Part shown: piece after piece, positions 18,583 through 45,062 of the stretch | How the letters are laid out: each line of letters opens with the position of its first letter | Numbering within the stretch: the stretch's first letter is position 1 | DNA from: Patescibacteria group bacterium | Lineage (GTDB): Bacteria > Patescibacteriota > UBA1384 > XYA2-FULL-43-10 > 1-14-0-10-43-13 | Direction of reading: 5' to 3' | Assembly (NCBI GenBank): GCA_041649155.1 | Contig: JBAZNP010000001.1 | Span: 558,869 to 622,868 of the forward strand | DNA length: 64,000 nucleotides | The notes under the pieces: generated by a model | Told to the model about the DNA's origin: nothing | Databases searched by the model: none | The model's input: only the letters and a program-made list of their open reading frames with translations | Position numbers and translations under genes: made by a program

Positions 18583-20045
18583 ATTACATGGAGAGTTTGA
18601 TCCTGGCTCAGGATTAACGTTGGCAGTGTGCCTAACACATGCAAGTCGAGCGGTCCGCAAGGACGAGCGGCAGACGAGAGAGTAATAACAAGGAACTTAC
18701 CCCCGAGTGAAGGATAGCCCACCGAAAGGTGGGGTAATCCTGCATAACATCGAAAGATCAAAGCCGTAAGGCGCTTGGGGAGAGGCCTTGTTCCTATCAG
18801 CTAGTTGGTGAGGTAATTGCTCACCAAGGCGATGACGGGTAGCTGGACTGAGAGGTTGACCAGCCTCGATGGGACTGAGACACGGCCCATACTCCTACGG
18901 GAGGCAGCAGTTGGGAATTTTGCACAATGGGCGAAAGCCTGATGCAGCAACACTGCGTGAAGGATGAAGGTTTTCGGATCGTAAACTTCTTTTATCTGGG
19001 AATAATCATGAAGGTACCAGATGAATAAGCACCGGCTAACTACGTGCCAGCAGCCGCGGTAATACGTAGGGTGCAAACGTTATCCGGATTTATTGGGCGT
19101 AAAGAGCTCGTAGGTGGTTTTGTAAGTTGGATATTAAATACTCCGGCTCAACCGGAGAAATGTATCCAAAACTGCATAACTTGAGGTATGTAGGGGAGGA
19201 TGGAACTTACAGTGTAGCAGTGAAATGCGTAGATATTGTAAGGAACGCCAATGGTGAAGACAGTCCTCTGGACATTACCTGACACTGAGGAGCGAAAGCG
19301 TGGGGAGCGAACGGGATTAGATACCCCGGTAGTCCACGCCGTAAACGATGCATACTAGGAATTTGGAGAATCGACCCTCTGAGTTTCGAAGCTAACGCGT
19401 TAAGTATGCCGCCTGGGTAGTACGGCCGCAAGGCTAAAACTCAAAGGAATTGACGGGGACCCGCACAAGCGGTGGAACATGTGGTTTAATTCGTCAGCAA
19501 GCGAAGAACCTTACCAGGGCTTGACATCTCCGGAATCCGCTGGAAACAGTGGAGTGCCTTCGGGAACCGGATGACAGGTGCTGCACGGTCGTCGTCAGCT
19601 CGTGCTGTGAAGTGTCCCGTTAAGTCGGTCAACGAGCGCAACCCCTATTGCATGTTGCATTCTCATGCGAGACTGCCGGTGTTAAATCGGAGGAAGGTGG
19701 GGATGACGTCAGATCAGCGTGGCTCTTACGTCCTGGGCTACACACGTGTTACAATGGGTAATAACAAAGGGTCGCTAAGCCGAGAGGTGGAGCTAATCCC
19801 ATCAAACTTACCCCCAGTTCGGATTGAGGGCTGAAACTCGCCCTCATGAAGTCGGAATCGCTAGTAACCGTAGGTCAGCCATACTACGGTGAATACGTTC
19901 TCGGGTCTTGTACACACCGCCCGTCAAGTCAGGAAAGCCGGTAACGCCCGAAGGGCCCAACAGGGCACCACGGTGGGATCGGTGATCAGGACTAAGTCGT
20001 AACAAGGTATCCCTATCGGAAGGTGGGGATGGATCACCTCCTTTC
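18583..20045 (+). rRNA. rrs: 16S ribosomal RNA (~1.46 kb)
   Basis: 5' GAGAGTTTGATCCTGGCTCAG. Internal GTGCCAGCAGCCGCGGTAATAC, AAACTCAAAGGAATTGACGGG, TTGTACACACCGCCCGTCA. 3' GGATCACCTCCTTTC. Leader 18452-18475 is complementary to trailer 20152-20175, forming the processing stem. Confidence 0.95.
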
Positions 20046-20170
20046 TAAGGAGAATCGTCCATCAATTCAATGATGGTTCGATACGGTCGATCGTCTGATA
20101 TTCGTTCTTGAATATCGAGACGCAAATCCTATGCTAAACCTTAGCATAGGTGCGTACTTTATCACTATTT

Positions 20171-20245
20171 AGTTGCAAAAGAGCTAAAAACAACAGACCT
20201 GCCTGCCGGCAGGCAGGTTACAGATCGTACGAATAATACGAATGC
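20171..20245 (+). repeat. Direct repeat copy 1, flanking the 16S-23S interval (TAAAAACAACAGA + 20-bp palindrome + TACAGATCGTACGAATAATACGAAT)
   Basis: About 85% identical to 41788-41866 in the same orientation. Confidence 0.8.
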
Positions 20246-20565
20246 TGTATGAAAAAGCCACTCGAAAGAGTGATTTTTTGTTATAATAAAAACAGAGGTG
20301 ATGATTATGCGGAAGTTAAGAAGACAGAATATGGGGGAAAGAAGGGGTTTTGCTACTCTATTGACTCCTCTGCGCGATAGAGTGGATAATAGCCGAAAAC
20401 CACATTCTAGAGGTATTCGCTTCAGGAGAAGTTTACTTCATGGTCATCATGTGCGAAGCGGCAGTACTCTCGGCTCGGGCGTCTCTTCTCGCCCGAGCTT
20501 ATTTTTGCAAAATTTAACGTTCTTCGAGTTTAAATTAATTCTTAGGATAAAAGATATAGCAGTCT

Positions 20566-41633: not shown

Positions 41634-41788
41634 TTGACATCTTCAAAATAATTAGTTAAGATCTCTTTAGAAACTCTAAAAGAGGTCTATGGTCAATCAC
41701 TACACCAATGAGAGGGGGACAAGCGGATGAGATAAAATAGGGGTATTTTATTTTTTTATCTCAATTATCCGCTGCGGCGGTTTTTTTT
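41634..41788 (+). ncRNA. Candidate small RNA: TTGACA-17-TAAGAT promoter to CCGCTGCGGCGG-T8 terminator (~120 nt transcript)
   Basis: Consensus -35/-10 at 41634-41662. Internal hairpin GAGATAAAA...TTTTATCTC. Intrinsic terminator at 41769-41788. No ORF. Confidence 0.3.
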
Positions 41789-41866
41789 GTCGCAAAAAGC
41801 ATAAAAACAACAGACCTGCCTGCCGGTAGGCAGGTGACAAATCGTACAGATAATACAGATTACGAA
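41788..41866 (+). repeat. Direct repeat copy 2, flanking the 16S-23S interval (with nested palindrome)
   Basis: GCAAAAAGCATAAAAACAACAGA-CCTGCCTGCCGGTAGGCAGG-TGACAAATCGTACAGATAATACAGATTACGAAT. Compare 20171-20245. Confidence 0.8.
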
Positions 41867-42235
41867 TTGTACGAAATATCAGGATAGCAATTGTGAGATA
41901 GGGGCTCACAAGTTGAGATTCTATAGCGCACATTAACAATTAAATAACGCTTTATTAAATATTCAACCACATTTAATAAAGCAAAGAGCAAATATATAAC
42001 TTAAATAATAATATTTGTGTAATTTCAAATTTACCCAGTTAGATGGCGTAAGCTTATCTAACAGGGTGTATATCTTCCGATATAAAAAAATTTCTCAAAA
42101 CAAGTAATTAATATTTCATCCGCCATCTGGCGAGATGGAATCCAGTAATTGCTAGTCAAGATTCTAAGTCGGGCAGTGGGGCAGATACTCAGTAATGAGT
42201 TTTTGCCTTCACTATTCGACCTCTGGAAAAATAAT

Positions 42236-45062
42236 ATTTCGTTTAAGGGCGTATAGTGGATGCCTTGACAGAAGATGCCGAAGAAGGACGTAGTAAGCTG
42301 CGATAATCCTCGGGGAGCTGCTAAACAAGCTTTGATCCGTGGGTGTCCGAATGGGGAAACCCCCTCGTAAGAGGAGCCCTCCAACCTTGAGTTGGGGAGA
42401 GCAGGTAAGCCGGTGAACTGAAACATCTTAGTAACCGGAGGAAAAAAAATCGAATGAGATTCCCTTAGTAGTGGCGAGCGAACAGGGAAAAGTCTAAACC
42501 GACGAATTTATTCGATCGGGGTTGCGGGACCTACATAATTTTTACGAATGAATAGAAAAACGAGCCTGGAAAGGACGACCATAGAGCGTGATAGTCGCGT
42601 ATTCAAAATTCTAGTAGTAAAGAGGTAGTGTTCCCAAGTAGCACCAGACACGTGAAACCTGGTGTGAAGCTGGGCCGATCATGGTCCAAGACTAAACACA
42701 TCTTCTGATCGATAGTGAACAAGTACCGTGAGGGAAAGGTAAAAAGAACCCCGATAAGGGGAGTGAAATAGAACCTGAAACTATACGCTCACAATGAGTA
42801 GGAGTCCCGATTTATCGGGATGACTGCGTGCCTTTTGTAGAATGACCCAACGAGTTAGCTATGTGTAGCAAGCTTAAGAGATTAAGTCTTGGAGGCGCAG
42901 TGAAAGCGAGGCCTAACAGGCCGTCTAGTTGCACATACTAAACCCGAAACCAGGTGATCTATCCATGGCCAGGCTGAAGTTTGGGTAAAACCAAATGAAG
43001 GGCCGAACCAGTAGATGTTGCAAAATCTTTGGATGAGCTGTGGATAGTGGTGAAATGCTAATCGAACCTGGAAATAGCTGGTTCTCCTCGAAATATATAT
43101 AGGTATAGCCTGGAATTTTGTCGCAGGGAGAGGTAGAGCACTGACTGAATTTGCGGGGACTTCGGTTCTCGCGTTCAAACAAACTCCGAATTCTTCCTGA
43201 TTCATTCCAGAGTCAGACGGCGGGGGCTAAGCTTCGTCGTCGAAAGGGAAACAGCCCAGACCGTCATCTAAGGTCCCTAAATTTATGCTAAGTGGAAAAG
43301 GTAGTGGAATCTCCAATACAACCAGGATGTTGGCTTAGAAGCAGCCATGCATTTAAAGAGTGCGTAACAGCTCACTGGTCTATATTTAAGAGGTTCTGCG
43401 CTGAAGATTTAACGGGGCTCAAGCATAGTACCGAAGATACGGGTTTATATTTATTTTTAAATGTAAGCGGTAGAGGAGCGTTCTTGGGGCGGTGAAGGTC
43501 ACACTGTGAGGTGGGCTGGAGCGCCAAGAAGTGAGAATGTTGGGATGAGTAACGAATTATGCTAGCGAGAAACTAGCACACCAAATACCCGAGGTTTCCT
43601 GGGCAACGGTAATCGTCCCAGGGTTAGCCGGTCCTAAGTCGAGGCCGTTGTAGTGGCGGCGTAGACGATGGCAATCAGGTGAATATTCCTGAGCTCTTAT
43701 GCATATAACCGATGACGCTTTGCCGTAGTCGTACAAACATCATGGTTTAGTTTGTACGGTGTAGGCGGAGACTAGAAAAACTCGGCTCAAAAGTGCATAA
43801 GATCCGTACCGCAAACCGACTCAGGTGGGTGAGGCGAGAAGCCTCAGGTGATCGGAAGAACTCTCGTTAAGGAACTCGGCAAATAAGCGTCCGTAACTTA
43901 GGGATAAGGACTGGCTAACGCAAGTTAGCCCGCAGCGAAAGAGCCCAGGCGACTGTTCACCATAAACACAGGTCCCTGCTAAATCGTAAGATGATGTATA
44001 GGGGCTGACGCCTGCCCAATGCTCGAAGGTCAAACCGGTCCCTGATCACCCTTGAGGTGCTAGGGGAACGACTAAGCCCGAGTGAATGGCGGCCGTAACT
44101 ATAACGGTCCTATGGTAGCGAAATTCCTTGTCGGGTAAGTTCCGACCCGCACGAATGGCGTAACGATCTGGGCACTGTCTCAACGAGAGATCCGGTGAAA
44201 TTACATAGTCGGTAAAGATGCCGATTACTCACAGCAAGACGGAAAGACCCCGTGGAGCTTTACTATAGCTTGATATTGGCTCGAGGAAATTCATGTGTAG
44301 AATAGGTGGGAGACTTTGAAGCCTGCTCGTTAGGGCAGGTGGAGTCAACAGTGAAATACCACCCTTGAATTTCTTTGATTCTAACTTTGGTCTGTGATAC
44401 GGCCGAAAGACAGTATTAGGTGGGTAGTTTAACTGGGGCGGTTGCCTCCCAAATTGTAACGGAGGCGTTCAAAGGTGCGCTTAGTCCGGATGGAAATCGG
44501 ACCTCGAAGTATAAAAGCACAAGCGCGCTTAACTGTGAGACCTACAAGTCGAGCAGACGCGAAAGCGGGATTTAGTGATCCGGTATTTTCTAATGATAGA
44601 GATACCGCTCAACGGATAAAAGTTACCCCGGGGATAACAGGCTGATCGCATCCAATAGTCCACATAGACGATGCGGTTTGGCACCTCGATGTCGGCTCAT
44701 CCTATCCTGGGGCTGAAGCAGGTCCCAAGGGTCTGGCTGTTCGCCAGTTAAAAGGGTACGCGAGCTGGGTTCAGAACGTCGTGAGACAGTTCGGTCCTAA
44801 TCTGCTGTGAGCGTGGAAATTTGAGTGGGTGTTCCCCTAGTACGAGAGGACCGGGGAGCGTGAACCTCTGGTGTATCTGTTGTCACACCCTGTGGCATTG
44901 CAGAGTAGCTATGTTCTATTGGATAAGCGCTGAAAGCATATAAGTGCGAAGCCAGCCACAAGATTAGATTTCTTAGATCCCTCAAAGAACATGAGGTTGA
45001 TAGGCTTTAGGTGTAAGGACAGTGATGTCCTCAGCCGGGAAGTACTAATTGATCAATTAAAA
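42236..45062 (+). rRNA. rrl: 23S ribosomal RNA (~2.83 kb)
   Basis: 5' GTTTAAGGGCGTATAGTGGATGCCTTG ... 3' GAGGTTGATAGGC...GTACTAATTGATC. Upstream 42130-42160 is complementary to downstream 45070-45100, forming the processing stem. Confidence 0.95.

Follow-up and report, generated by a model that had tools for sequence, protein, structure and literature searches.

Unlinked rRNA genes are well known in the Candidate Phyla Radiation (CPR), where 16S and 23S were found unlinked in 27 of 34 circularised genomes (Lui et al. 2021, PMC8172020), and the Patescibacteria are listed among the clades that have them (Brewer et al., 10.1101/705046, ISME J 2020). The genes count as unlinked when the 16S-23S distance is more than 1,500 bp in the latter study and more than 2,000 bp in the former, whose category D, 'unlinked by distance', comprises genes of one strand that are separated by more than 2 kb and have opposite-strand genes between them. 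Here we describe a stretch of 64 kb (the window) that belongs to a metagenome-derived genome of the Patescibacteria (CPR) with about 0.8 Mb and is contained in the ENA contig ERZ27247363 k141_656675 (603 kb, MEGAHIT short-read assembly), in which 22,187 nt separate the 16S gene from the 23S-5S pair on the same strand and a direct repeat stands at each of the two rRNA flanks. With opposite-strand genes in between, the window falls under both definitions. The likeness to the published CPR cases extends to the small genome, the linked 23S and 5S genes and the conservation within the clade, and there is no essential difference; flank repeats, promoters and processing stems are not given for this lineage in the two papers. 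The arrangement is one more case of the unlinked layout, which is the majority state in CPR/Patescibacteria.

We consider it likely, with good confidence, that the locus is a split rRNA operon of the kind normal for most CPR, that its unlinked layout is old, and that the repeats at its flanks are copies of dispersed elements. The original prediction, which was made from the sequence of the window, had favoured the insertion of the intervening segment through recombination at the repeats, or its inversion followed by re-insertion, and had called the arrangement unusual. This last qualification does not hold, as unlinked rRNA genes are the rule in CPR and a spacer tRNA-Ile of opposite orientation is already known from Borrelia.

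The closest published analogue of the interval is the rrs-rrl spacer of Borrelia, which in Borrelia garinii PBi has 4,617 bp and contains trnA, trnI, mag and cof, with the tRNA-Ile opposite to the rRNAs (PMC2688082, PMC4370689). The window resembles this spacer in its expanded interval between 16S and 23S genes of one strand, which retains the tRNAs of the internal transcribed spacer (ITS) together with protein genes, at least one tRNA being inverted. However, the interval of the window, with 22 kb and about 27 genes, has some five times the length, its three tRNAs are all inverted and its 23S-5S pair is not tandemly duplicated. The two lineages are unrelated and the likeness is an analogy, not a homology. 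For Rickettsiales, Buchnera and Wolbachia, the accounts cited in 10.1101/705046 and PMC8172020 describe a reductive-genome model of unlinking with recombination between operons. As far as these accounts go, such bacteria are similar to the window in their small genome, single rRNA set and 16S apart from 23S-5S, whereas their distances are usually of hundreds of kb and ITS tRNAs are not kept between the genes; in the window the rRNA genes are neighbours with tRNAs between them.

Junctions in relatives and content of the interval

The three rRNA genes of the window are full length, without insertions and all on the plus strand (Table 1), and the 5S starts 226 nt after the 23S. The interval contains about 27 protein genes on both strands, as well as three minus-strand tRNAs, namely tRNA-Ile(GAU), tRNA-Ala(UGC) and tRNA-Ala(CGC), which were found by both ARAGORN and Rfam. 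In these respects the original prediction, which had described a gene-filled segment with the ITS tRNAs inverted, was confirmed.

Both junctions recur in relatives. On the 16S side, contig L082 (GCA_964363695.1), with a 16S that is 95.6% identical to that of the window, presents the 16S 3' end, the orthologous trailer, a hairpin with a T-run, the PaaX_M-like and NUDIX genes and, further on, iPGM, a solute-binding protein and a histidine kinase. On the 23S side, contigs L089 and L090 carry the 289-aa gene (77% and 65% protein identity to the window, respectively), three opposite-strand KGG genes, the promoter and leader that are also seen in the window, and the 5' end of the 23S. Contigs L091/L092 and L094, which were found by a metagenome scan with the conserved 23S leader hairpin, have their own TTGACA promoter and non-rRNA DNA upstream of the 23S. 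No 16S was found upstream of the 23S within 12.2 kb in L089, 10.9 kb in L090 or 7.4 kb in L091. The unlinked trait is conserved in the clade, by its 16S-side junction in L082 and by its 23S-side junction in the other contigs, while the gene content of the interval differs among the window, L082, L089 and L090. Since relatives from other samples reproduce both junctions, with no 16S close upstream of the 23S, the split is old and is not a misassembly. This supports the long-established unlinked arrangement that had been offered as the alternative to insertion.

The assembly itself is corroborated by L095, an independent JGI contig that is 100% identical to positions 39494-42162 of the window, including the 23S-side repeat and its palindrome. 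Moreover, identical NCBI proteins (WC536_03045 and WC536_03175, 'Patescibacteria group bacterium') are placed 26 loci apart on a single contig of 798,787 bp, which fits the gene count of the window. The length of this contig is close to that of the 603-kb contig and a second ENA contig of 195,686 bp taken together, the latter also containing a protein of this genome.

Two other leads were less productive. A scan of genome contigs with iPGM gave matches of at most 51% identity only, all to Clostridia or groups likewise unrelated, and thus no useful relative. Two PaaX_M-like homologues, P0007 and P0008 (59-60% identity), were considered as linkage evidence and rejected: they are uninformative on rRNA linkage because they are located, away from 16S, in the context of P0045, the paralogue in the genome of the window (TRCF-PaaX_M-DprA-TopA). 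The 16S of L082 has two insertions near its 3' end, at 884-1378 (about 495 nt) and 1467-1811 (about 345 nt), both absent from the window 16S, which is a typical CPR rRNA insertion polymorphism.

The genes of the interval include those for PaaX_M-like, NUDIX, DUF1861, iPGM, solute-binding, Ddl, CsrA, radical SAM, pilin-like and GxxExxY proteins, a split histidine kinase and three KGG proteins. The minus strand has iPGM (22748-24169), radical SAM (30344-31720), the 289-aa gene, the KGG genes and the three tRNAs. The segment contains core genes (iPGM, Ddl, CsrA), and no further tRNA-Ile or tRNA-Ala gene was found in the 64-kb window. The GC content of the segment (0.335-0.393) shows no compositional difference from the flanks (0.34-0.40), and the sign of the GC skew is the same in both, except over the KGG genes. 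No Pfam domain of an integrase, transposase or recombinase was found in the 20 largest open reading frames (ORFs) and 8 others, several small ORFs being without any match. The 22 kb between the rRNA genes are ordinary, plastic chromosome.

The ITS-type tRNAs are placed upstream of the 23S in relatives too, and their strand varies. The gene for tRNA-Ala(UGC) shares the strand of the 23S in L089 and lies opposite to it in L090 and L091, and in L091 both tRNA-Ala(CGC) and tRNA-Ile(GAU) are on the strand of the 23S. The interval would best be explained as an old ITS that grew as genes were gained and was reshuffled by small inversions, with the ITS-type tRNA-Ile(GAU) and tRNA-Ala(UGC) remaining inside it. 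Because these tRNAs are retained and strand-variable, the locus suggests that unlinking took place here by gradual spacer expansion and scrambling rather than by long-range translocation. In practical terms, methods based on long 16S-ITS-23S amplicons will miss this lineage.

Predicted transcription units

The 16S and the 23S-5S genes are very probably separate transcription units, because each has a strong promoter-like site and a stem of its own, the 16S is followed by a terminator-like site and minus-strand genes lie between them (Table 1). The same upstream context, TTGTGCTNTTGACA / TTGTGCTN, precedes both promoter-like sites. The leader/trailer processing stems that had been predicted for both genes were confirmed as inverted repeats and in RNA co-folding. 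The arms of the 16S stem (39 nt) are 82% complementary and form an intermolecular helix, and those of the 23S stem (29 nt) are 86% complementary and co-fold in the same way, together with a second pairing of 42224-42239 with 45060-45075. These signals lend support to the independent transcription and processing that had been proposed from the start.

If the signals act as their sequences suggest, the rrs unit would run from its promoter through a boxA-like leader to the terminator-like hairpin, with the leader/trailer helix as a substrate for RNase III-type processing. The rrl-rrf unit would begin at its own promoter and comprise the leader, the boxB/boxA-like signals, the 23S helix and the 5S, up to the hairpin that follows this gene. 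The similar promoters could allow a coordinated yet independent synthesis of both units. The boxA of E. coli is TGCTCTTTAACAA, which the motif TGCTCTTTGACAA of the 16S leader presumably resembles as an antitermination signal. The hairpin motif of the 23S leader (GTGAGATAGGGGCTCAC) is identical in L089, L090, L091 and L094.

Between the 23S promoter and these leader signals there is a module of about 130 nt (41663-41789) that is conserved in L089 and L090. Its 13-codon ORF reads MVNHYTNERGTSG in the window and MVNHYTKDNEKSG in L090, and its short GC hairpin followed by T6-T8, which looks like a terminator or attenuator, differs in sequence (CCGCTGCGGCGG in the window, CCGCCACGGCGG in L090). Rfam has no family for this module, and a permissive scan of 41500-42260 gave chance-level matches only. 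A complement to the 23S-side repeat, which could form an outer processing helix, was sought downstream of the 5S, with weak AT-rich matches only.

The composite repeat at the rRNA flanks

The original prediction described same-orientation repeats of about 75 bp, and these were found as a direct repeat of 72 nt (20168-20239 and 41785-41856) with 85% identity and a spacing of 21,617 nt. The layout was also as described, with TAAAAACAACAGA, a 20-bp palindrome and then ACRRAT-type motifs. This repeat is a composite of two dispersed elements. The first, which we call the core, has about 35 nt (AACAACAGATKAC...ATAATACRRAT; sequence AACAACAGATKACNRATNNTACRRATAATACNRAT) and is present in six to seven copies in the window, at 20190, 36275, 36742 (minus strand), 41807, 56587, 56676 (minus strand) and 57114, with no match in 1.26 Mb of unrelated control loci. 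The second is the GC-rich palindrome CCTGCCTGCCGGCAGGCAGG, of which the window has five copies with none expected by chance. The two boundary copies of the original prediction stand, and both parts of the repeat also occur elsewhere in the window.

In four of its five contexts the palindrome is a precise 20-nt indel, for which an empty orthologous or paralogous sequence exists. When the flanks are rejoined without it, the 23S leader aligns contiguously to L089, the core of the 16S trailer to window positions 57113-57144 (31 of 32 nt), the repeat of about 73 nt at 34194-34300 to window positions 51685-51765 and to L082, and the site at 7026 to L085. These contiguous alignments make the palindrome a precise 20-nt insertion unit. 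It always stands 5' of a T and it nests inside other repeats. It is from these indel patterns only that the palindrome appears to be mobile; no transposase candidate was identified for it, neither RAYT nor any other transposase being seen in the scanned ORFs of the window.

REP/REPIN (repetitive extragenic palindrome) sequences, repeats of the MITE (miniature inverted-repeat transposable element) type and the mobile GC clusters of yeast mitochondrial DNA are short, GC-rich, palindromic, multi-copy and intergenic. The palindrome of the window shares these features and is similar also in its precise presence or absence, its nesting in repeats and its AT-rich genome; it differs in being smaller, with 20 bp and perfect, than typical REPINs or MITEs. 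The two parts of the composite repeat are, likewise, short, multi-copy, mostly intergenic and either palindromic or with inverted termini (pairs 36275/36742 and 56587/56676). The precise presence or absence was established for the palindrome and not for the core. For a genome as reduced as this one, the precise-indel behaviour of the palindrome gives a modest clue to the repeat dynamics of CPR.

At the orthologous rRNA flanks of relatives the composite is incomplete or missing. In the 23S leader of L089 the core is kept and precisely the 20 nt of the palindrome are missing, L082 has in its 16S trailer a diverged core with neither palindrome nor TAAAAACAACAGA, and the element is absent from the 23S leaders of L090 and L094. 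The split therefore pre-dates the present pair of repeats. Moreover, as both parts are dispersed and the palindrome is missing at the orthologous flanks, the repeats are not breakpoints and the pair delimits no inserted block. Repeats near rRNA genes should not be read as scars of rearrangement without a genome-wide repeat census.

A core element was probably present at each rRNA flank first, with the palindrome inserted later at AACAGA^T in both. Two insertions into one target, or a single insertion followed by a short gene conversion, fit equally well, since the 13-nt left flank is identical in the two copies and their palindromes differ by a single mismatch.

The core also accompanies the gene of a GxxExxY protein (PDDEXK_3, TIGR04256). 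The copy at 36275 supplies the start codon and the first nine codons (MTNNTDNTN) of this gene, and the inverted copy follows directly after the stop codon. The homologues in relatives retain the N-terminal MT[ND]xT[ND]NT[ND] and both flanking core copies, the gene being syntenic; in L099 the 5' core copy is tandemly duplicated. We considered this gene as a mobile cassette that seeded the rRNA flanks and rejected it: in L098 and L099 it is found in synteny, after the CarboxypepD_reg, N_methyl and approximately 450-aa genes, and so behaves as a resident gene. No further GxxExxY-like coding remnant was found in the 64-kb window.

Several observations weigh against an old split flanked merely by dispersed repeats. 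A second stretch of 20.5 kb from the same genome (L096) contains no core, palindrome or composite copy; the repeat family is not dense there and, therefore, two copies at the rRNA flanks are less likely to be pure chance. The only core copies that bear the palindrome are the two at the rRNA flanks, both at the same AACAGA^T position, and these copies share the identical 13-nt left flank and a weak similarity further left, so that a specific relationship or selection at the rRNA flanks is possible. The degenerate ACRRAT-rich sequence that L082 has in its 16S trailer and L091 in its 23S leader can be read as an old, possibly functional flank sequence. Every transcription signal is a consensus match only, and no contig of a relative spans from 16S to 23S.

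The identical placement of the palindrome is accommodated by the suggestion that it is a minimal, recently active insertion element that landed, or was selected, at AACAGA^T of the pre-16S trailer and pre-23S leader. Its hairpin there would serve the split units: it might, for example, stop nucleases, mark a place of processing or, being self-complementary, bring the two precursors together by pairing. We regard this as unlikely. The small, apparently mobile palindrome with its identical placement in both rRNA flanks is the one mildly new item of the locus.

A related explanation, compatible with an ancient split, takes the whole repeat as a functional cis-element, that is, a shared binding site or hairpin that may coordinate processing, stability or stoichiometry of the two precursors, the palindrome acting as a nuclease block or dimerisation site. 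Besides the restriction of the palindrome to the two rRNA-flank cores, this is suggested by the fact that the palindrome of the 16S copy immediately adjoins the 16S processing helix at its base, and by the retention of the 23S-leader copy in L089 and of a diverged one in L091. However, the relatives that lack the palindrome (L082, L089) or the element (L090, L094), as well as the insertion of the palindrome in contexts unrelated to rRNA, leave it quite improbable.

The shared flank sequence could also be a relic of one ancestral ITS, for example if the operon or ITS was duplicated and one copy then lost its 23S-5S and the other, reciprocally, its 16S, with both units keeping the 16S-adjacent part of the ITS. 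For Rickettsia, the classical explanation, as cited in 10.1101/705046, is that duplicated operons recombined. The ACRRAT-rich sequence in the L082 16S trailer and in the L089 and L091 23S leaders would agree with such an origin, as would a weak likeness between the 3' arm of the 16S stem (TTTAGTTGCAAAAGAGC) and the leftmost part of the repeat copy at the 23S (TTTTGTCGCAAAAAGCA); but this likeness covers a short, AT-rich stretch, which at the 16S is under the constraint of pairing with boxA. The 16S core, moreover, has 7 differences in 27 from the 23S copy and is nearer to the unrelated one at 57113, with 31 of 32 nt in common. Further copies accompany the GxxExxY gene and are present at 56587-56676 and 57114, so that the element spreads or recurs independently of rRNA, and the leaders of L090 and L094 lack it. 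The chance of such a relic appears slim to us.

Insertion of the 21.6-kb segment into a compact ancestral ITS by recombination at the repeats, or its inversion and re-insertion, with the repeats as scars, is largely refuted and very improbable. The same-orientation copies just downstream of 16S and upstream of 23S, similar over 72 nt, and the ITS-type tRNAs on the opposite strand within the segment had made it attractive. Against it, both junctions are shared by relatives, some with as little as 65% protein identity and others more distant still, with no empty site (segment absent, one repeat copy) and no compact operon among them. The original prediction had itself named relatives with the same arrangement and no boundary repeats as speaking against insertion, and such junctions exist, either without the palindrome (L082, L089) or without the whole element (L090). 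The dispersal of both repeat parts in the window also contradicts it, as do the scanned ORFs free of integrase or transposase domains, the composition equal to that of the flanks, and the presence in the segment of iPGM, Ddl, CsrA and the only tRNA-Ile(GAU) and tRNA-Ala(UGC) of the window.

Finally, although misjoins in metagenome assemblies such as this MEGAHIT k141 short-read contig typically occur at rRNA genes and repeats, the chance of an artefact is negligible. The identity of L095 and the junctions of relatives from other samples rule out that the contig is chimeric at 20.2 kb or 41.8 kb, and to these the single 798,787-bp NCBI contig with both marker genes and a second contig with the same neighbouring genes can be added.

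Further features of the window

The split operon and its dispersed repeats are listed with the remaining features in Table 1.

Table 1. Positions of rRNA genes, predicted signals, repeats and other features in the window, and in contigs of relatives where these are named
Feature	Position	Strand	Remarks
Palindrome, dispersed copy	7026-7045		precise indel compared with L085
Promoter-like site of 16S, TTGACA-17-TAGTAT	18347-18375	+	10/12 consensus matches; preceded by TTGTGCTG
Putative 16S processing stem, 5' arm	18429-18467	+	inverted repeat and RNA co-folding
boxA-like motif TGCTCTTTGACAA, 16S leader	18441-18453	+	putative antitermination motif, read from sequence; within 5' arm of 16S helix
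16S rRNA gene	18585-20044	+	Rfam, 1482.8 bits, model positions 1-1533, no insertions
Putative 16S processing stem, 3' arm	20159-20197	+	inverted repeat and RNA co-folding
Composite repeat, 16S trailer	20168-20245	+	TAAAAACAACAGA 20185-20197, palindrome 20198-20217, core TTACAGATCGTACGAATAATACGAAT 20218-20243
Terminator-like hairpin and T-run, possible end of 16S unit	20259-20282	+	equivalent hairpin and T-run in L082 trailer
tRNA-Ile(GAU)	27594-27670	-	ARAGORN and Rfam
Palindrome, dispersed copy nested in 73-nt repeat	34257-34276		precise indel compared with window 51685-51765 and L082
GxxExxY gene (36283-36696) with core (36275-36309) and inverted core (36708-36742)	36275-36742	+	PDDEXK_3, TIGR04256
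GxxExxY arrangement in relatives	L098 3881-4324; L099 5775-6260		
tRNA-Ala(CGC)	36982-37057	-	ARAGORN and Rfam
tRNA-Ala(UGC)	37974-38049	-	ARAGORN and Rfam
Three tandem KGG-repeat genes (GsiB/LEA-like stress protein)	40756-40938, 40976-41245, 41297-41488	-	divergent from adjoining 23S promoter; conserved in L089, L090, L095
Promoter-like site of 23S, TTGACA-17-TAAGAT	41634-41662	+	10/12 matches; preceded by TTGTGCTA; conserved in L089, L090
Conserved 23S leader module	41689-41789	+	13-codon ORF 41689-41730, AT hairpin, short GC hairpin and T8 41770-41789
Composite repeat, 23S leader	41785-41866	+	TAAAAACAACAGA 41802-41814, palindrome 41815-41834, core TGACAAATCGTACAGATAATACAGAT 41835-41860
boxB-like hairpin GTGAGATAGGGGCTCAC (41893-41909) and boxA-like CGCACATTAACAA (41927-41939)	41890-41939	+	putative assignment
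Putative 23S processing stem, 5' arm	42139-42167	+	inverted repeat and co-folding
23S rRNA gene	42232-45069	+	Rfam, 2540.7 bits
Putative 23S processing stem, 3' arm	45071-45099	+	inverted repeat and co-folding
5S rRNA gene, linked to 23S	45296-45411	+	Rfam
Hairpin between A-run and T-run, after 5S	45436-45464		detected as minus-strand terminator; may serve both strands
Inverted core pair, no gene between	56587-56676		MITE-like, about 90 nt
Solo core copy	57114-57148	+	
Palindrome, dispersed copy	57345-57364		
40-nt repeat CTATCTTAGGTTTACATACGGCCGTTGCAAAATCTAAGAT	20564-20603, 21186-21225, about 52538-52586; L082 2151-2195, 2885-2933		conserved in L082
Repeat of about 73 nt	34194-34260, 51689-51761, 6041-6113, 12800-12871; L082 2220-2296		

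The histidine kinase of the interval consists of two ORFs with a 4-nt overlap, 26084-26971 (HAMP part) and 26968-27546 (HATPase part), and is a single 472-aa gene in L082. The gene may be truly split, may have a frameshift or be a pseudogene, or may appear divided through an error of the assembly. The CsrA encoded at 28863-29402 has 166-179 aa and two CsrA-domain matches, the usual size being about 60-70 aa, and looks like a tandem fusion.

After the 16S terminator-like hairpin, the stretch 20284-20621 contains an ORF of 100 aa (20298-20600) that is uncalled in the ENA annotation and for which neither a Pfam match nor an L082 counterpart was found. A strong GC hairpin with a T-run is located at 20472-20499, within the same stretch, which is probably non-coding and variable.

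A perfect direct repeat of 40 nt, CTATCTTAGGTTTACATACGGCCGTTGCAAAATCTAAGAT, with inverted ends and promoter-like hexamers, is present on both sides of the PaaX_M/Cas2-like gene and is probably the promoter-operator of this putative regulator. Another dispersed repeat, of about 73 nt, has two small hairpins (GTCATTCCGTACTTGATACGGAAT ... CCCAGATCAAGTCTGGGATGAC) and is 94-96% identical between the window and the genome of L082.

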